The notes under the pieces are model-generated. The model worked only from the letters and a program-made list of their open reading frames with translations, ran no database searches and had not been told where the DNA came from. A stretch of 64,000 nt of DNA from an uncultured Alphaproteobacteria bacterium (GTDB lineage Bacteria; Pseudomonadota; Alphaproteobacteria; HIMB59; GCA-002718135), in NCBI GenBank assembly GCA_902596065.1, contig CACJSL010000001.1, positions 48,782-112,781 of the forward strand. The letters are read 5' to 3'. How positions within the stretch are numbered: the stretch's first letter is position 1; each line of letters opens with the position of its first letter. The position numbers and the translations under genes were made by a program. Shown here one piece after another: positions 9,794 through 29,922 of the stretch.

Positions 9794-10624
9794 TTAATTA
9801 ATAAAAAAATCTTTTGGCTGTTTTGAAATTTGAATAATATTTTTCTTTAATTTTTTTAAGGCAGCTGATTCTATTTGTCTTACTCTTTCTTTGCTAATAT
9901 TTAATTTTTTTCCAATCAGATCAAGTGTTATTTTTTTATCATTTAAATTTCTTGAAAGAATTATTTCTCTTTCTCTACTATTCAATAGTTCAATAGATTT
10001 TGCTAACCATTCATTTTTTAATTTATTATCATTATTTTTTTCAACAACTTCATCAGGTGTAAGAGAATTAGCTTTTAATATAGATAATAAATCTGGACCA
10101 TCTTCGTTATCTATAGTTTTATTTAAAGATAGATCCCCTAAGGCAAGCTTGTTTTCCATATGCTGAACTTGTAAGGGTTTTACATTTAAAAAATTAGATA
10201 TTTTTTCCACTTCTTCTTGGCCCATAAAATTGTGGGAGTCAAAATTGATTTGTTTTTTTAATTTATTTAAACCAAAGAATAATGTTTTTTGTGCAGCATT
10301 ATTACCATTTTTTACAATTGACCAATTTTTTAGAATATAGTTTTGAATTGTAGCTCTTATCCACCACTGGGAATAAGTTGATAATCTAAAACCTTTTGAT
10401 AAATCAAATTTTTCTAATGCATGCATAAAACCTATTGTACCTTCTTGCATTAAATCAAAGTGACTTAATCCATAGGAAGAATATTTTTTGGCTATTGAAT
10501 TTATTAATTTATTGTAAGCTCCTATTAATCTTAATAGAGATTTTTGATCATTATCATTTTGCCATTTTGTAATTAACTCATATTCTTCTTTTTTTTCTAA
10601 TGATTTTTGATTCATAAAATTCAA
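9794..10624 (-). CDS. rpoH: RNA polymerase sigma-32 (heat-shock sigma factor)
   Basis: Sigma-70 regions 2-4. STYSQWWIRATIQNYILKNWSIVK matches the alphaproteobacterial RpoH pattern. RpoH-box-like QKTLFFGLNKLK. Confidence 0.88.
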   Translation of the reverse strand: MNFMNQKSLEKKEEYELITKWQNDNDQKSLLRLIGAYNKLINSIAKKYSSYGLSHFDLMQEGTIGFMHALEKFDLSKGFRLSTYSQWWIRATIQNYILKNWSIVKNGNNAAQKTLFFGLNKLKKQINFDSHNFMGQEEVEKISNFLNVKPLQVQHMENKLALGDLSLNKTIDNEDGPDLLSILKANSLTPDEVVEKNNDNKLKNEWLAKSIELLNSREREIILSRNLNDKKITLDLIGKKLNISKERVRQIESAALKKLKKNIIQISKQPKDFFIN

Positions 10625-10825
10625 CCTATTATTTTTTTTAATCTTTTAACTTATAATGACATTAGAATGATTCTAATGTGTTAGCCATTAAAAAGGGTCA
10701 TATGTGACAATTTGGCAATAACACCTATTATTTTAAGTAGTAATTTTAAATAATATAAATTTACATATCTTGCTATTTGTTAATTACGCCCTAATTAGAA
10801 ACCTAAACAAATTTTTATAAAACTT

Positions 10826-11545
10826 ATGGAATATTTTTTACAATCGACGGATTATGTAGGGGTATCATTTTGGCTAGTTTCTGTAGCAATGGTAGCTGCT
10901 ACTGTTTTCTTTTTATATGAAGGTATGCATGTGAAAGAATCATGGAGAGTCTCAATGCTGTTAATGGGATTAGTGACATTGATAGCAGGAATTCACTATT
11001 ACTATATGAGAGATTATTGGATAACTTCTCAAGAGTCACCCATAGTCTATCGATATATAGATTGGCTACTTACTGTGCCACTTCAAATGATTGAATTTTA
11101 CCTTATTTTGGTTGCTGCAGGCTTGGCTGCAAGATCTGGTATTTTTTGGAGATTATTAGTTGGCACTTTAGTGATGCTTCTTGGTGGATATGCAGGAGAA
11201 AATAATTGGATTCACCCAACATTAGGTTTTGTTATTGGTATGGTTGGATGGATATATATTGTTTATGAAGTATTTAGAGGAGAATCAAGTGTCATTGCGA
11301 GTAAAAAAGATTCAATTAATAAAGCATTTAAAGCTCTTGGATTAATAATTGTTTTTGGCTGGGCTATTTATCCTATTGGATATATTTTTGGTCTGTTAAG
11401 TCCAATGATAGGAATGGGCACAGTCAATATAAATTTTTTAAATGTCACATACAATCTAGCAGACTTTGTTAACAAAATATTATTTGGATTAATAATATGG
11501 GACGTGGCTAGAAAAGATTCTTCTAAAGATTTAAAAGATGTCTAA
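10826..11545 (+). CDS. Proteorhodopsin (proton-pumping, Gln at the spectral tuning position, blue-absorbing type)
   Basis: RYIDWLLTVPLQMIEFY carries the D/T/E proton acceptor-donor set. Q87 (CAA 11084-11086) aligns with L/Q105 of reference PR. Retinal Schiff-base Lys lies in YNLADFVNKILFG. His in IHYYYMR. Confidence 0.95.
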   Translation: MEYFLQSTDYVGVSFWLVSVAMVAATVFFLYEGMHVKESWRVSMLLMGLVTLIAGIHYYYMRDYWITSQESPIVYRYIDWLLTVPLQMIEFYLILVAAGLAARSGIFWRLLVGTLVMLLGGYAGENNWIHPTLGFVIGMVGWIYIVYEVFRGESSVIASKKDSINKAFKALGLIIVFGWAIYPIGYIFGLLSPMIGMGTVNINFLNVTYNLADFVNKILFGLIIWDVARKDSSKDLKDV

Positions 11546-23501: not shown

Positions 23502-24084
23502 AATTTTTTTATTTTTAATCTTATTATCGTTTCCAGTAAACGCTCATACTTTCACTGGGATGATTGGTTTTTATGATGGACTCTCCCATCCTGTTTTAGG
23601 CATTGATCATTTTTTAGCTATGGTAAGTGTTGGTATTGTTAGTGCACAAATAGGCGGAAGAGCTATTTGGACGGTTCCTAGCACTTTTGTTGTCATGATG
23701 ATTATTGGTGGAATATTAGGGATGGTTGCAGAAATATTTTTATTAAATATTACTGAATTGTTTATTGTAATAGTTGAGATTGGAATTGTCTTATCAGTTA
23801 TTCTACTTGGATTAGCAATCGCTATTGGAAGAAAATTATCGTTAACTATAATGATGTTTTTTGTCAGCATATTTGGATTATGTCATGGGGCAGCACACGG
23901 GATGGAAATGCCATGGGCAGCTAACCCAATACTTTTTGCACTTGGTTTTTCTTCAGGTACCGCAACTCTTCATTTATTTGGTGTCATTATAGGTAGTCTT
24001 TTAATTAAAAATAATTACTCATTATTCCTATTGCGCTTTATTGGTATTGCTTCTGCTTGTTATGGAGCTTATCTTTTTATTTAG
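23491..24084 (+). CDS. HupE/UreJ family metal (Ni/Co-type) transporter
   Basis: Signal peptide ending VNA-HT, GLSHPVLGIDHFLAMVSVG, second HGxAHG motif (CHGAAHGME). Confidence 0.8.
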   Translation: MPNKIFLFLILLSFPVNAHTFTGMIGFYDGLSHPVLGIDHFLAMVSVGIVSAQIGGRAIWTVPSTFVVMMIIGGILGMVAEIFLLNITELFIVIVEIGIVLSVILLGLAIAIGRKLSLTIMMFFVSIFGLCHGAAHGMEMPWAANPILFALGFSSGTATLHLFGVIIGSLLIKNNYSLFLLRFIGIASACYGAYLFI

Positions 24085-24533
24085 ATATTTATTTTTACGT
24101 CAACTTCATCAGATAAAGAATTAGCAACAAAACAGTATCGGTGTGAACGATCTTGCATTTTTATCATTTCTTCCTTTGATACTTCAAAATTATTTGCAAA
24201 AGTGATTTGAGGATTTAATTCAATTTTAGTTACACACATCTTACCTTTTGAGCTTTTGCCAAGAAAGGCAACAGCTTTATCTTTATAATTTGTAACGGGC
24301 CACTTCATTTTAGCGGCTAGAGCTAAAAAAGTCATCATGTGACAACTGCTAATAGACGCTGCTAGTCCTTGTTCAGGATTTAAGCTATTTTTATTTCCAC
24401 CATAATCAGGAGCTGCACTAGATGGCATAGATATATCATCGTTTACAAAGATCATATGATCAGGAGAGTACTTGCCTGGCTCAAAATCTTTACCTGCTAA
24501 ATCCCAGTTTAAATTAATTGATAATTCTTCCAT
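24081..24533 (-). CDS. OsmC/Ohr family protein
   Basis: Size and ASISSCHMMTFLALAAK plus downstream Cys (MCVTKIEL) typical of OsmC-like thiol peroxidases. Confidence 0.7.
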   Translation of the reverse strand: MEELSINLNWDLAGKDFEPGKYSPDHMIFVNDDISMPSSAAPDYGGNKNSLNPEQGLAASISSCHMMTFLALAAKMKWPVTNYKDKAVAFLGKSSKGKMCVTKIELNPQITFANNFEVSKEEMIKMQDRSHRYCFVANSLSDEVDVKINI

Positions 24534-24821
24534 AAAAAAAATTCATTATTACAATTTATAAATATTGCAATAAAGATCTACAAATATTGTCATCCTTTTA
24601 ACTTAAATTTTATATTTAGAATAATTACAATAAAGACTATTTTAGTCCAGAAAATCTAGGTTTTTTTTATAAAATTTATTTTTGTTCATAATCTTGTAAA
24701 TCACATTTGTTCTTTATGAAAGAATGTGGGAAAGACATGCTTATAAGATTTAGGTCTCGTCACGACTTAACTTCCTCTTTTTGTTTTTCCCACAAATTAA
24801 AAAATATTTAAACGGGGAAAT

Positions 24822-26198
24822 ATGAAAAAATTTTTAATATCTATAATTACTTCATTATTTACTTTGGGTTTTGCTTATTCAACTTTTGCAGATGGACATA
24901 AAGTTTATGGTCCATACCCTATTACATTAAAAGGTTATGATGGAGATAAAACGAATTCAGTAAAATATACAGGTCAAATGGCAAGACAAGTTTTGCATGA
25001 CAGCTTAAAAGCTCTTGTTAAGTCAGGTGACGTAGCAAAGATGATGGCCTATTATAATGGTGAAGATAATCTAGAAATCATTGCTCCAAAATCAAAGGAT
25101 GATTTTAAAATAAAACAAACCATGGTTTCTGAAATTGGTAGTGGTAATTTATCTGGCAAAACATACAAAGGTGCTATTGCAGGATGGGGAAATCTTACAG
25201 GGCCAGAAGTATTAGAGCACATGATGAACAAAGCCGGAGAAGTTGAAGGTGGGTTCGATCCAAATACTGGTTTTGACTATACTCAATTAATTTCTAAATT
25301 TGCAATGGGGGCAGTTTTTTATAATCAAGCTGCTAACAATTATCTTGGTAAAAAAATGGAGATTGGTCAAAAACCAAATAGCGAACCATACAAAGAAGGT
25401 TCATATTATACTGGTAAAGAACATAGCTGGGACGAAGCTTTTGGATATTGGGGTTCTGCTGCGCATGCATTAACTTTGAGTGCAGAACAAAATTATAATG
25501 TTGCAAAAAGAAAAGACATGTCTTCTGCTGATTTTAATGGCGATGGAGTTGTAGATCTTTATTCTGAGTATACTTTTGCGCATGCTTATTATGCATCTAG
25601 TTATGACAAGAGTGGTAAAACTAATTATCTTGCCACTGTTAACCAAGCATTTATTGATGGAAGACAAGTAATCACAGATGCTAATGGAAGAAATTTGAAC
25701 TTTGATGAAAGAACCAAATTATTGGCTCAAAGAGATATCATTGTAGATAACTGGCAAAAAGTTATTGCTGAATCTGTTTTTAAATATGCTGGATCAACTT
25801 ATAAAGATATTGTTGCTTTAGAAATTATTATTGAGGCTAATGGTGACACATCAGATGCATTTAGAACATATGCTAAGCATTGGGGAGAACTAAAAGGATT
25901 TGCTTTAGCGCTTCAATGTGGCCCTGAAAATCTAGGCGAAACAGCTGTAAAGCTTAATCGTATGATGGGATTGGGCCCCGTTCTTTTAAATGCTTCTCAA
26001 GTTGTAGGGATAGACTCAAATGGGAACTTTATTAAAGATCAGGCTCAAGACTGGAATGAATTTAAACTTCATATGCTAAAAATTCAAAAACTTATGGTCG
26101 ATGAATTTGGAGTAGTAGCCAAAGCCAAAGATCAACTTGGCGATATGGAAGCTCTTGCTGGTAGCATGGGAAGCGCAGATTCTGCTGAAAACGACTAA
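24822..26198 (+). CDS. Abundant-type exported protein of unknown function, possibly imelysin/DUF4856-like iron-associated
   Basis: Clear signal peptide, GKEHSWDEAFGYWG block, heads an iron-uptake locus. Family assignment is tentative. Confidence 0.5.
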   Translation: MKKFLISIITSLFTLGFAYSTFADGHKVYGPYPITLKGYDGDKTNSVKYTGQMARQVLHDSLKALVKSGDVAKMMAYYNGEDNLEIIAPKSKDDFKIKQTMVSEIGSGNLSGKTYKGAIAGWGNLTGPEVLEHMMNKAGEVEGGFDPNTGFDYTQLISKFAMGAVFYNQAANNYLGKKMEIGQKPNSEPYKEGSYYTGKEHSWDEAFGYWGSAAHALTLSAEQNYNVAKRKDMSSADFNGDGVVDLYSEYTFAHAYYASSYDKSGKTNYLATVNQAFIDGRQVITDANGRNLNFDERTKLLAQRDIIVDNWQKVIAESVFKYAGSTYKDIVALEIIIEANGDTSDAFRTYAKHWGELKGFALALQCGPENLGETAVKLNRMMGLGPVLLNASQVVGIDSNGNFIKDQAQDWNEFKLHMLKIQKLMVDEFGVVAKAKDQLGDMEALAGSMGSADSAEND

Positions 26199-26211
26199 GA
26201 ATTATTGTAAA

Positions 26212-26237
26212 AGTGTGGCTTTTATTAAAGCCACACT
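26212..26237 (+). terminator. Terminator-like hairpin (attenuating, weak U tract)
   Basis: AGTGTGGCTTT-TATT-AAAGCCACACT perfect 11-bp stem, 14 nt after the stop codon. Confidence 0.6.
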
Positions 26238-26256
26238 ATAATTAATTTATCATTCT

Positions 26257-27267
26257 ATGGATTATTTTTTTGACTATACATCGCAAATAACCAATCAATT
26301 TATTGATCCTAAAAAAAGAGTATTTCTATTTTACATATTAATTTCAATATTAATTGCAACTGCTTGGTTTATGATTAATAAAAAACTTTCTCTTAAAAAA
26401 ACTCTAATTAAAATATTTGATAAAAAAATATTTTTTTCTAAATCTGCTAAGTCTGATTATAAAATTTTTTTAATAAATCAGTTAATCATGATGATCGTTT
26501 CACCTTTTTTAATTACACAACTAACAATTGCAACAGCATTGTATTTTTATTTTCATACTATTGATTGGTTAAGTGCTGGAATGTTTGTTGGAATAGCAAA
26601 AATTTATATAATTTTAAGTTTTACAATATTTCAATTTACAATTGATGATTTTAGTAAATATATAGTTCATCGATTTATGCATAAATGGCCAGTATTATGG
26701 GCTTTGCATAAAGTACATCACTCTGCAACTGTATTAACTCCTATGACAGTATTTAGAACACATCCTTTAGAAGGTATAATTTTTTCACTTAGAAGTGCTA
26801 TTACCCAAGCCATAGGAATATCTATTTTTTTCTACCTTTTTGGTAATCTTGTAAGTTTATATACCATAGTTGGTGTTAACATTTTTGTATTTGTATTTAA
26901 TATTCTTGGATCTAACTTAAGACACTCTCATATAGGAATAAGATACTGGAAATGGTTAGAATATATTTTTATTTCACCAGCTCAACATCAATTGCACCAT
27001 TCAATAGCATTTGAGCACCATGATAAAAATTTTGGGGCGGCTTTAGCTATTTGGGATTGGTTATTTGGATCACTGCACCATTCAGTAGAATTTGAAACAC
27101 TTCATTTAGGCATAAAAAAGAATCAACATGATGCAACTCATAACTTAAAAAATTTATATCTTGATCCAATTCATGAAATTAAAAAGCATATTTTTAACAA
27201 AATAAAGAAAATTAAAAATAAATTTAACAAAATAATTTTAAAAGGAAGATATATTAATGAAGTATAG
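26257..27267 (+). CDS. Fatty acid hydroxylase/sterol desaturase superfamily membrane di-iron enzyme
   Basis: Histidine boxes HRFMH, HKVHH, HQLHH plus several TM helices. Confidence 0.8.
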   Translation: MDYFFDYTSQITNQFIDPKKRVFLFYILISILIATAWFMINKKLSLKKTLIKIFDKKIFFSKSAKSDYKIFLINQLIMMIVSPFLITQLTIATALYFYFHTIDWLSAGMFVGIAKIYIILSFTIFQFTIDDFSKYIVHRFMHKWPVLWALHKVHHSATVLTPMTVFRTHPLEGIIFSLRSAITQAIGISIFFYLFGNLVSLYTIVGVNIFVFVFNILGSNLRHSHIGIRYWKWLEYIFISPAQHQLHHSIAFEHHDKNFGAALAIWDWLFGSLHHSVEFETLHLGIKKNQHDATHNLKNLYLDPIHEIKKHIFNKIKKIKNKFNKIILKGRYINEV

Positions 27268-28267
27268 CATTATAATAATCTCACTCATTATGTTATGTGC
27301 AAACAATATATTAGCAAAGGAAATTAATATTTATTCACACAGACAGCCTTTTTTAATCAATCCATTTTTAGAAGCTTTTACAAATGAAACTGGAATTAAA
27401 ACCAATGTTGTCTATTCCAAAACTGGTTTAGCTGAAAGACTTCAAGCTGAAGGTGAAAATAGTCCAGCAGATGTTATTTTGACAGTAGATATTGCAAGAC
27501 TGTATGTTTACAAAGATAAAGATTTATTAGCATCCATAGAATCTAAAAAATTAGAAAAAAATATTCCTCAACATTTGAGAAGTCCAGACAATACTTGGTT
27601 TGGTTTATCCAAAAGATCACGAGTAATAGTAGTTTCAAAAGATAGCAATGCGTTAGAAAGTATTAAAAGAATAGAAGATTTATCCGACCCTCAATGGAAG
27701 GGAAAAATTTGTTCAAGACCTGGAAGCCATGTTTACAACAGAGCATTAATGGCTTCTATTATTGCTGCCAATGGTGAGGCAAAAGCTGAAGAATGGGCAA
27801 ATGGTCTTGTTAGTAATTTGGCAAGAAGACCTCAAGGTAATGATAGGGCGCAAGTGAAAGCAATATATGAAGGACAATGTGAAATTGGCATCATTAATAA
27901 TTATTATTTTGGAAAGTTAAAATTTTCTGATGATCCAAAACAACGAGAGTGGACAAAAAATTTAAAATTGATTTTTCCTAATCAAGAAGAAGGAGATAGA
28001 GGCTCTCATGTTAATATCTCAGGTGGGGGAGTTGTTAAATTTTCAAAAAATAAAAAAGAAGCTATTGCTTTGTTAGAGTTTTTAACAAATAAAAAAGCTC
28101 AAAATCTTTATGGTGAAATTAATTTTGAATATCCAGTTAATCCAGAAATATCTCCTACAAAAGAATTATCAAGTTGGGGTACTTTTAGAGAAGATAATCT
28201 TCAAATTATAAAAATTGCTGAATTAGCACCATTAGCACAAAAAATTATTGATAGAGTTGGTTGGTAA
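27257..28267 (+). CDS. fbpA: Fe(3+) ABC transporter periplasmic binding protein
   Basis: Signal peptide, INIYSHRQP, similarity pattern of FbpA/SfuA/AfuA; SD AAAGGAAG. Confidence 0.85.
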   Translation: MKYSIIIISLIMLCANNILAKEINIYSHRQPFLINPFLEAFTNETGIKTNVVYSKTGLAERLQAEGENSPADVILTVDIARLYVYKDKDLLASIESKKLEKNIPQHLRSPDNTWFGLSKRSRVIVVSKDSNALESIKRIEDLSDPQWKGKICSRPGSHVYNRALMASIIAANGEAKAEEWANGLVSNLARRPQGNDRAQVKAIYEGQCEIGIINNYYFGKLKFSDDPKQREWTKNLKLIFPNQEEGDRGSHVNISGGGVVKFSKNKKEAIALLEFLTNKKAQNLYGEINFEYPVNPEISPTKELSSWGTFREDNLQIIKIAELAPLAQKIIDRVGW

Positions 28268-28314
28268 ATCAAATAAATATTGATAGTAAACAATGTTAAA
28301 CTATAAGATTTGTT

Positions 28315-29922
28315 GTGTTGTCTAATTGGAATACTTGGTCATCAATTGTTGCCCTTATTGCATTAATGATAATAGCACCAGTTGTGGCAATTTTTTATTC
28401 AGCCTTCTTAGGTGATACTTCTCTTTGGCCGCATTTATTTTCAACTGTACTTCCACGTTATACTTATAACACGATTGTTTTAATGTTTGGCGTTGGTTGT
28501 TTAAGTTTAGTTTTTGGTGTTACAACAGCTTGGATTGTTACACGTTATAATTTTCCTTTCAAATTAATTCTTGAATGGGCTTTATTATTACCTGCTGCTG
28601 TACCAGCTTATATTATTGCTTACACATATACCGATATATTTGAGTATGCTGGACCAGTTCAGGGAATGTTACGAGATTTATTTGGATGGAAAACTTCTCA
28701 AGATTATTGGTTTCCAGAAGTTCGTTCGATGGGAGGAGCTATTTTAGTGATGTCATCAGTTCTCTATCCATATATTTACTTATTAACTAGAGCCTCTTTT
28801 TTAACTGTTCCTGTTTCTTTTTATCAAACTAGTTCAATTTATGGTCGGAATACATTTTATTATGTTGCGCTTCCTCTAGCTAGACCAGGGATTATTGCTG
28901 GATTAGCCTTAGTTTTAATGGAAACTATATCAGATTTTGGAACAGTTGATTATTTTGCCTTAGAAACATTAACCCTAGGAGTCTTTAATGTTTGGATGGG
29001 AATGAATAGCTTATCTGGAGCCTCACAAATTTCTTCAGTTTTATTTATTTTTATTGTTGTGCTTTTAACAGTTGAATACCTTGCTAGAAGAAGACAACGA
29101 TTTCATGAAAAAAGCAGCGGACAAGATACTGTTCAATCTGAAGAGATTTCTAATTTTAAAAAGATTGTATGTTTAATTGTATGTTTAATACCCATCCTTT
29201 TAGGTTTTATCATACCGACATTTGTTTTATTAAATTTTGTTTTAAGTGGTTTTTCTATAATTAATTTTACTGAAATTTTAGAAATAGCTTTTTCAAGTAT
29301 AGCTATTGCTGCCGTTAGTGCCTTGGTAGTAATGATAATATCTTTGTTGATGATAGTTGTTGCTAATTACAAATCAAATTCTATTCAAAGAATTTTAATT
29401 TTTCTTGCTTCTTGTGGTTATGCTTTTCCTGGTACTATCTTAGCTGTAGGAATAGTAGTTTTTGTAGGTTGGTTAAATGATTTAATTTATTTTCATTTAA
29501 GTTATTTCGTTGGAGGTTTTATTATTTTAATATTTGCCTATACCACACGCTTTTTAGCAGTTGGTAATGGAGCAATAAATTCAGGTATATTAAGAATTCA
29601 TCCTAATTTATTTGATGCTTCTAGAATAATGGGAATAAGTTTTTTTCAAAGTATAAGAAAAGTTATACTGCCATTAGTTTATGCTAATTTACTAGCTGGA
29701 GGTATATTAGTATTTGTAGATATATTGAAAGAATTACCAATAACACTATTATTAAGACCATTTAATTTTGAAACTTTAGCAACTTATGTATATCAATATG
29801 CATCAGATGAATTGCTAGAAGAATCTTCCTTTGCAGCATTAATTATTATTATTGTAGGGTTAGGACCTGTTATTTTTTTAAGTAATACTATTAAAAATAT
29901 AACTAACAAAAAACAAAGTTAA
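28315..29922 (+). CDS. fbpB: Fe(3+) ABC transporter permease (fused two-domain)
   Basis: 535 aa, 12 TM-type hydrophobic profile, duplicated permease domains; GTG start. Confidence 0.85.
   Translation: MLSNWNTWSSIVALIALMIIAPVVAIFYSAFLGDTSLWPHLFSTVLPRYTYNTIVLMFGVGCLSLVFGVTTAWIVTRYNFPFKLILEWALLLPAAVPAYIIAYTYTDIFEYAGPVQGMLRDLFGWKTSQDYWFPEVRSMGGAILVMSSVLYPYIYLLTRASFLTVPVSFYQTSSIYGRNTFYYVALPLARPGIIAGLALVLMETISDFGTVDYFALETLTLGVFNVWMGMNSLSGASQISSVLFIFIVVLLTVEYLARRRQRFHEKSSGQDTVQSEEISNFKKIVCLIVCLIPILLGFIIPTFVLLNFVLSGFSIINFTEILEIAFSSIAIAAVSALVVMIISLLMIVVANYKSNSIQRILIFLASCGYAFPGTILAVGIVVFVGWLNDLIYFHLSYFVGGFIILIFAYTTRFLAVGNGAINSGILRIHPNLFDASRIMGISFFQSIRKVILPLVYANLLAGGILVFVDILKELPITLLLRPFNFETLATYVYQYASDELLEESSFAALIIIIVGLGPVIFLSNTIKNITNKKQS

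Follow-up and report, generated by a model that had tools for sequence, protein, structure and literature searches.

A predicted Irr-type operator ahead of a sigma-32 paralog gene, beside proteorhodopsin, in uncultured Alphaproteobacteria

The intergenic region that separates a sigma-32-family gene, rpoH2, from a proteorhodopsin (PR) gene in an uncultured alphaproteobacterium carries a palindrome that is very probably a real, though at this point predicted, binding site for an iron- or peroxide-sensing regulator of the Irr type. Our main reading, to which we give a probability of about 0.7, is that the palindrome is an operator of the ICE form with 7-1-7 architecture, that it would be bound by a dimer of an Irr-like protein, and that it would set the expression of rpoH2 within a small regulon that also takes in katG and an FbpA-type iron-uptake locus. 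The DNA analysed is a stretch of 64,000 nucleotides (hereafter the window), corresponding to C1:48782-112781 of genome G000, an assembly that is 68% complete and in which about 1100 called ORFs cover 95.7% of the sequence, leaving approximately 4% non-coding. The features on which the argument turns are as follows, with positions in the window unless a contig of G000 is named.

9794..10615, minus strand: rpoH2, 273 aa, sigma-32 family (NCBIfam PRK06596, 246.9 bits against a cut-off of 241)
10659..10679, no strand: palindrome ACATTAGAAT-G-ATTCTAATGT, predicted 7-1-7 Fur-family operator of the ICE (Irr-box) type
10699..10731, plus strand: second conserved element, the near-palindrome TGACAATTTGGCA, overlapping a sigma-70-like promoter that points at PR
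10826..11545, plus strand: proteorhodopsin gene (Pfam Bac_rhodopsin, E 4.7e-45)
24081..24533, minus strand: OsmC-like peroxiredoxin-family gene (Pfam OsmC, E 1e-15), divergent from the site at 24615
24615..24631, no strand: degenerate ICE-type site TTTAGAATAATTACAAT, intergenic, between osmC and the iron-uptake locus; fourth-best matrix match
24822..29922, plus strand: iron-uptake locus (exported DUF4856 protein, fatty-acid-hydroxylase-family protein, FbpA-type Fe(3+)-binding protein and fused permease, by Pfam)
G000:C1:46155-48765, 16-2627 nt before the window's first base: unit of Irr2, ICE box, TTGACA and katG
G000:C1:46155-46568, ~2.2 kb before the window's first base: Irr2 gene, Irr-like Fur family, adjoining katG
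G000:C13:23884-24342: Irr1 gene, Irr-like Fur family

As the preliminary description of this DNA had it, the sequence ACATTAGAATGATTCTAATGT at 10659-10679 is a perfect 10-1-10 palindrome, two 10-bp arms flanking a single base. Its core, TTAGAAT-G-ATTCTAA (10662-10676), is made of two half-sites that both read TTAGAAT, and the identification of this core with the ICE motif holds up, as TTAGAA-TGA-TTCTAA is exact and the palindrome fits 12 of the 14 specified positions of TTTAGAA-N3-TTCTAAA. The boxes of Fur, PerR and Zur reportedly share a 7-1-7 layout, which Fuangthong and Helmann are said to have set out in 2003, and the inner bases of the palindrome give TTAGAAT-N-ATTCTAA in that layout. The palindrome is located in a 210-bp divergent intergenic region, with the sigma-32-like gene on the minus strand and the rhodopsin gene on the plus strand. 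Its centre is 157 nt, and its edge 147 nt, from the rhodopsin start at 10826, close to the distance of about 150 nt first estimated, but the 35-55 nt originally assigned to the other side requires correction. The start codon conserved among rpoH2 orthologues is the ATG at 10615 (MNQKSLEKK) and not the TTG at 10624, and the palindrome consequently lies 44-64 nt upstream of the sigma gene, with its centre 54 nt from the start codon.

The significance of the palindrome lies in its particular sequence, location and conservation, and not in its palindromicity. The length of the palindrome had been taken as evidence against chance, but perfect palindromes with arms of at least 10 and a spacer of at most 5 number 68 in this 1.06-Mb, 28%-GC genome, or about two per 64-kb window, compared with a mean of 38.5 (range 27-45) in first-order Markov simulations, and rarity was rejected as evidence on this account. 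Matches to TTAGAATNATTCTAA with at most one mismatch are likewise no commoner than those to a reversed control pattern genome-wide in nine genomes, and in about 100 genomes of genus g8 the 17-mer does not rise above background. We estimate from hit densities that such a match with at most one mismatch would fall by chance in a given 250-bp region with a probability of approximately 1e-3. The genome-wide counts are what one would expect if there were no dedicated regulator and the repeat were an AT-rich inverted repeat produced by chance or derived from promoter sequence, seemingly conserved only through close kinship. Each arm contains the -10-like hexamer TAGAAT, one per strand, and from the sequence these might be used by a pair of divergent promoters placed back to back; within genus g1, moreover, conservation extends over most of the intergenic region. 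The evidence on the other side comes from where else the motif is found, and in which genomes.

A matrix built from the conserved sites, the window's own included, ranked the palindrome first in the 1.06 Mb, the site between Irr2 and katG second and the site ahead of fbpA (the fbp site) fourth; all three are intergenic, which argues against an origin by chance. With matrices built solely from the fbp or katG sites of relatives, the palindrome was still the best position in its region, at 11.9 bits. The remaining high matches in G000 fall within genes. Those on C30 (rpsT) and C34 (an enoyl-ACP-reductase-like gene, as read from the translation) are genuine coding sequence and were treated as chance, and a site with a perfect core ahead of murA (C21) does not have the right inner bases and scores low. 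Recurring as it does in the genome at the promoters of iron- and peroxide-related genes (katG and the FbpA locus), the motif is classed here as a predicted ICE/Irr box.

The katG box, TTTAGAATTATTCTAG, overlaps the stop codon of Irr2, lies 61 nt before katG and is followed four bases on by a perfect TTGACA; because it is upstream of this separate, perfect -35, the box is not itself the promoter at katG, contrary to what a promoter-derived repeat would predict. The unit of Irr2, box and katG is kept in G001-G003 and G007, and the box stands directly between Irr2 and katG in five genomes belonging to two genera. Across four congeners the arms of the katG box are constant while the central base varies between T, G and A, and the core is perfect in G007, which belongs to another genus. 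Two sites precede katG in G008, despite Irr2 not being detected in that 85%-complete genome. The palindrome near rpoH2 is a copy unlinked to this unit, 13 kb from the regulator gene, and further copies of the palindrome, for which the preliminary description had suggested a search, are found at Irr2-katG and upstream of the FbpA locus. The single-contig relative G025 has a cysteine-containing Fur-family gene directly before katG, in place of Irr2.

The second site in the window, at 24615-24631, had been described as a weaker ICE-like site ahead of an iron-uptake locus, and the sequence agrees with this; in G000 it is degenerate, with a TTACAAT arm. The FbpA-type protein of the locus (27257-28267) matches the solved FbpA/FutA structures 1q35 and 2pt1 with E values of 1.8e-86 and 4.3e-85, and because of these matches we take the transporter's binding protein to be Fe(3+)-binding; the NCBIfam naming of the transporter was uninformative, consisting of weak PhnS-like matches. 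At the orthologous position a perfect TTAGAATAATTCTAA is present in G002, G003, G007, G005 and G008, and in the congeners G002 and G003 a perfect TTTAGAATAATTCTAAT sits between osmC and fbpA, in the same osmC arrangement as in G000. The site in G010 has the same two-mismatch form as that of G000, and genus g8 has two sites. Altogether, the fbp site is perfect or near-perfect in six genera, and every genome that has it also has Irr1. Comparison of window positions 24534-27267 with G002 and G003 revealed that in G000 the ICE site is separated from fbpA by two extra genes, which encode the DUF4856 and fatty-acid-hydroxylase-family proteins. Although other genera have the DUF4856 protein at 81-86% identity, the remaining genomes of this genus lack it, and the insert containing it may therefore be a mobile or variable cassette.

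The regulon may extend beyond the sites found here, given that the G000 assembly is 68% complete, and the congeners have a further site near adhC. This ICE-type site, TAGATTAGAATGATTATAAT, is conserved at G003:C1:189766-189782 and G001:C29:4089-4105 (locus L109), with an adhC-fghA-like pair on one side and, on the other, a 135-aa ORF and then a pdhA-like gene; the incomplete G000 assembly does not contain this locus.

On the rpoH2 side, the site is kept in three species of genus g1, being identical in G003 and also in G002, where the flank on the rpoH side has diverged. The version in G007, ATTATAATGATTCTAAT, has one mismatch and lies within DNA that otherwise cannot be aligned. In genus g8 rpoH2 is not beside the rhodopsin gene, and in most of 13 genomes the upstream position with the best matrix score is the same, some 48 nt ahead of the start codon, with a near-perfect site in G017 (TATTAGAATTATTCGAATC); this conservation is confounded, since the 3' end of a coding gene occupies the same stretch. 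G008 and G010 have rpoH2 but no upstream site. Since the whole intergenic region is well conserved within the genus, independent support comes mainly from G007 and the diverged flank of G002, together with the sites of g8 and G005, which are weak or confounded by coding sequence. TTATAAT half-sites appear in the G007 version and in the version at the second rhodopsin gene (PR2) of G002. In g8, a conserved ACGTATAAT stands 5-6 nt before the ATG of rpoH2 (loci L038-L050), with a degenerate ICE-like sequence in the last codons of the upstream gene, and the position of this TATAAT suggests that the g8 rpoH2 mRNA has a very short leader or is leaderless. The 15-mer core is found again at katG and fbp, where across genera the arms stay constant and the spacer base changes, and it survives in G007 where its surroundings do not align; a repeat without a dedicated regulator would not be expected to leave this pattern, and we regard that explanation as very unlikely. 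Conservation of the site in relatives, the further copies of the box and the presence of Irr-like genes, described below, all support the original ICE/Irr reading, and we retain it.

The gene that the site would serve is a member of the sigma-32 family, as first described, but it is not the housekeeping heat-shock factor that the name rpoH implied. It scores above the cut-off of the subfamily model PRK06596 and below those of the equivalog models PRK07500 and TIGR02392, and an RpoH-box-like QKTLFFGLNK can be seen by eye in its translation. Relatives carry two RpoH-like genes, one of which is the orthologue of the window's gene, with 49-59% identity from genus to genus. The other, at about 42% identity to the window's, is the sole RpoH in family f2. 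On the grounds that relatives carry both the orthologue and this other RpoH, sequence comparison assigns the window's gene as the second sigma-32 paralog, rpoH2. The sigma genes found in the incomplete G000 assembly are rpoD and rpoH2 only, and a wider search for rpoH2 orthologues returned only two congeners already known, AG-414-E06 and AG-426-I04.

Candidate regulators of the Irr/Fur family, whose presence the original reading presupposed, are encoded in the genome. There are three Fur-family genes in G000, of which the third lies within a znuA/znuCB cluster and is, from this context, Zur. For the other two the top NCBIfam models are IrrA/Irr, with scores of 149.3 and 140.6 bits, just under the cut-off of 150, and we designate them Irr-like proteins and not certified equivalogs. 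No canonical Fur was found in G000 or in ten relatives, five of them at least 92% complete, and the relatives have the same set of regulators. Fur, Mur and Zur were accordingly rejected as binders, there being no Fur or Mur and the third gene being Zur by context. Irr1 and Irr2 have in common the recognition helix S[LV]ATIYN[TN]L, which would fit their reading one shared box. Irr2 lacks cysteine, and its best solved relatives are the PerR proteins of Leptospira (5nl9) and Bacillus subtilis (2fe3); all five regulatory-site ligands (H37, D85, H91, H93 and D104) are kept in its alignment to PerR, and yet it scores 140 bits against Irr models versus at most 78 bits against PerR models. Irr2 occurs only in genera g1 and g4, which are also the only genera of the 116-genome family with a strong 17-mer at rpoH2, and it is from such co-occurrence that we infer which of the two paralogs would act at each site. 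In G000, G002, G007 and G008 (loci L064-L068, L008, L098 and L105), the katG and rpoH2 sites have G or C at ±9 from the centre (in flanks such as TCTA and TGT) and the fbp sites have A or T, a difference that may separate the targets of the two Irr paralogs.

An operator for a regulator outside the Fur family, such as a dimer of the MerR, Rrf2 or Xre type that recognises TTAGAAT-N-ATTCTAA, would account for G008 keeping its katG sites with no Irr2 detected, and the assignment of the site to Irr1 or Irr2 is made from sequence. Such a regulator would, however, leave unexplained why the site lies directly between Irr2 and katG in five genomes and why Irr1 is present in every genome with an fbp site. 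The motif also fits the Irr box defined experimentally (PMC1698941), with the 7-1-7 layout of the Fur family. In family f2, finally, the Irr-like protein has a differing recognition helix, and in the one f2 genome examined, G029, a different palindrome, TTTGAAT-N4-ATTCAAA, is found upstream of the DUF4856 gene. We therefore judge a regulator from outside the Fur family highly improbable.

How an Irr-like protein might control rpoH2 can be sketched as follows. A dimer, most likely of Irr2, which is encoded next to katG, would bind the palindrome. The site would lie on or against the core promoter of rpoH2, centred 54 nt from the start codon, a placement that is a guess on our part, and in that position an occupied site would set rpoH2 transcription. 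The katG box ends four bases before the -35 hexamer, which would place its centre at about -47 and make a bound Fur-family dimer overlap the -35 region. For rpoH2, the distance between site centre and start codon is 48-54 nt in g8, g1 and g4, and the TATAAT just before the ATG in g8 suggests that the geometry is comparable. The predicted geometry at both genes fits repression by occlusion of the -35, which would be the most likely mode; because activation as well as repression has been reported for ICE sites (PMC1698941), this direction of control is one that we infer and not one that the box dictates. Release would presumably follow inactivation of the regulator by heme or iron, or by peroxide, by extension from the biology of Irr and PerR. 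Given the link to katG and the PerR-like ligand set of Irr2, heme or peroxide is as likely a signal as iron. The outcome would be a very small regulon, comprising the rpoH2 site, katG and the FbpA iron-uptake locus, through which a stress sigma factor would be tied to iron and oxidative status.

The proteorhodopsin gene on the other side of the palindrome has regulatory candidates of its own. A promoter scan identified a sigma-70-like PR promoter, GTGACA, 16 nt and TATTAT (10704-10731), that matches at 10 of 12 positions. The second conserved element, TGACAATTTGGCA, overlaps it and has counterparts in the same relative place, ATATGCAAAAATTGCATAT in G005 and TGCAAAATTTGCA in G007, which are TGCAA-N3-TTGCA palindromes; this element may belong to the control of PR. 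A regulon for it was sought and rejected, as the genome holds no other copy of TGACAATTTGGCA or TGCAA-N3-TTGCA.

The palindrome could be a real Irr-type operator whose target is PR, either alone or with rpoH2, with the regulator raising or lowering PR expression in response to iron status from ~70-100 nt upstream of the PR promoter, such that light-driven proton pumping would substitute for iron-rich respiration. Relative to this promoter the palindrome would sit near -69, where activators typically bind, and ICE-like sites accompany rhodopsin genes in three gene arrangements: divergent rpoH2 and PR1 in g1 and g4; a ybaK-like gene divergent from PR2 in G002 and G003, with sites 134-157 nt upstream of PR2, that of G002 having a 15-mer, TTATAATGATTCTAA, identical to the PR1 site of G007; and, in G008, katG divergent from a formyltransferase-like gene followed by PR. 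In all three arrangements, however, PR is much the more distant of the two genes, the site being 22-56 nt from the divergent one, and the PR2 site of G003 scores only 4.8. Sites are likewise missing from PR in the 13 genomes of g8 that were examined, in G010 and in family f2, while the g8 rpoH2, which is not beside PR, nevertheless has a degenerate site at the equivalent upstream place. PR as the regulated gene in place of, or on a par with, rpoH2 seems to us rather unlikely on balance. As the site is nearer the divergent gene each time and the rhodopsin genes of g8, G010 and f2 are without it, rpoH2 is most likely the main target and PR a possible second one.

A sigma-32-type promoter candidate, CTTGCTA-N13-CCCTAATT, is also located at 10770-10797, 29 nt before the PR start. 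Among approximately 1100 upstream regions, the pattern matches only dnaK and PR, with 1.7 matches expected after shuffling; the PR candidate is kept in G002 and G003, is at best weakly so in G007, and is not clearly conserved outside the genus. With that many chance matches expected and conservation unclear beyond the genus, we set the candidate aside as support for a cascade and keep it as a lead. That an Irr-type regulator gates the sigma-32 paralog, which in turn would transcribe PR from this promoter, is distinctly unlikely; if true, light-driven energy capture would be wired to iron and oxidative status via repressor, sigma factor and rhodopsin, in a clade abundant in the oligotrophic ocean. 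Outside the window, the dnaK sigma-32 promoter reads CTTGTAA-N14-CCCATATT (G000:C1:36090-36160), and 3' of it lies an inverted repeat, TAGAAT-N8-ATTCTA, with the ICE half-site at a different spacing. Also outside the window, groES (G000:C8:13772-13930) is preceded by a CIRCE element, TAGCACTC-N9-GAGTGCTAA, for which reason the chaperonin operon appears to be controlled by HrcA and not by sigma-32.

The palindrome at 10659-10679 could in principle function in RNA, by forming a hairpin in the 5' leader of a long mRNA for PR or rpoH2, and the region does fold to -9.5 kcal/mol, with z = -3.2 relative to shuffled sequences. It is, however, the sequence of the arms that is conserved across sites and genomes, with no compensatory changes, and the substitution in G007 breaks a pair uncompensated. 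The same sequence is found at unrelated genes, the repeat has no T-tract on its 3' side, and no gene ends here that would need a terminator. We find an RNA role extremely improbable, and the Irr-type operator ahead of rpoH2 remains our preferred reading.

Irr boxes, the regulator family and small, peroxide-centred Irr regulons are already known from streamlined or non-rhizobial alphaproteobacteria (PMC1698941, PMC3413700). What is new here is the lineage, an uncultured group of Alphaproteobacteria known from SAGs, and the extra target, a sigma-32 paralog beside proteorhodopsin; a literature search yielded no report of Irr control of rpoH or rhodopsin genes. These are streamlined ocean bacteria with very few regulators, the sigma and Fur families comprising here RpoD, one or two RpoH paralogs, two Irr-like proteins and Zur, and because regulators are so few, each regulatory link carries much of the cell's decision-making. 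A Fur-family operator before a sigma gene would turn an iron/peroxide regulon of three operons into a cascade. It would also provide a handle on the response of an uncultured clade, distributed globally, to scarce iron and to oxidative stress, and on any regulation of proteorhodopsin.

Among known systems, PerR of Bacillus subtilis recognises the Per box TTATAAT-N-ATTATAA and controls katA, ahpCF and mrgA. The palindrome resembles this system in its 7-1-7 architecture, with one base per half-site differing (TTAGAAT versus TTATAAT), in having a catalase gene as the flagship target and in the five PerR regulatory ligands that align in Irr2. Irr2 differs in that it is without the Cys4 zinc site and indeed any cysteine, as are Irr and Leptospira PerR. 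A Per box was rejected because the half-sites read TTAGAAT and not TTATAAT, and a Fur box because the half-site differs from GATAAT and neither G000 nor the ten relatives have a canonical Fur.

The likeness is closer to ICE, which Rudolph and colleagues are said to have found bound by Irr in Bradyrhizobium japonicum in 2006. The consensus TTTAGAA-N3-TTCTAAA is bound by Irr in that species and in other Rhizobiales and Rhodobacterales (Rodionov et al. 2006, PMC1698941), and Irr binds the ccpA and mbfA promoters in R. sphaeroides (PMC3413700). Classical Irr is active at low iron and inactivated through heme (PMC3413700, PMC1698941). The present system shares with it the palindromic consensus at 12 of 14 positions, Irr-like genes and sites at the promoters of iron-uptake and heme/peroxide genes, and the small size of the putative regulon recalls the minimal Irr regulons of peroxide-related genes predicted in Pelagibacter (P. 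ubique) and Rhodospirillales (PMC1698941). It differs in that the outermost consensus bases are swapped (ATTAGAA...TTCTAAT), in that there is no Fur and hence no evident division of labour between Fur and Irr, and in the predicted targets, as neither a sigma-32 paralog nor PR is among the Irr targets in those sections of PMC1698941 that were accessible.

For the sigma factor itself, the nearest parallel is RpoHII of Rhodobacter sphaeroides, a second sigma-32 paralog for singlet-oxygen and oxidative stress that is switched on by RpoE (PMC3441632). In both cases a duplicated RpoH is under a stress-specific upstream regulator, predicted in the present one, and co-regulation with katG makes an oxidative-stress connection for rpoH2 plausible by analogy. 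The upstream controller here would be a Fur-family repressor instead of an ECF sigma factor, and the likeness drawn here is one of role. Finally, the predicted Irr-ICE-rubrerythrin/ccpA units of P. ubique (PMC1698941) have the same order as the Irr2-katG unit, in which the regulator gene is followed by an ICE palindrome on the promoter and then by a gene for peroxide detoxification. What the present lineage adds is a further, unlinked copy of the predicted operator before a sigma-factor gene, which would extend such a unit into a small regulon.
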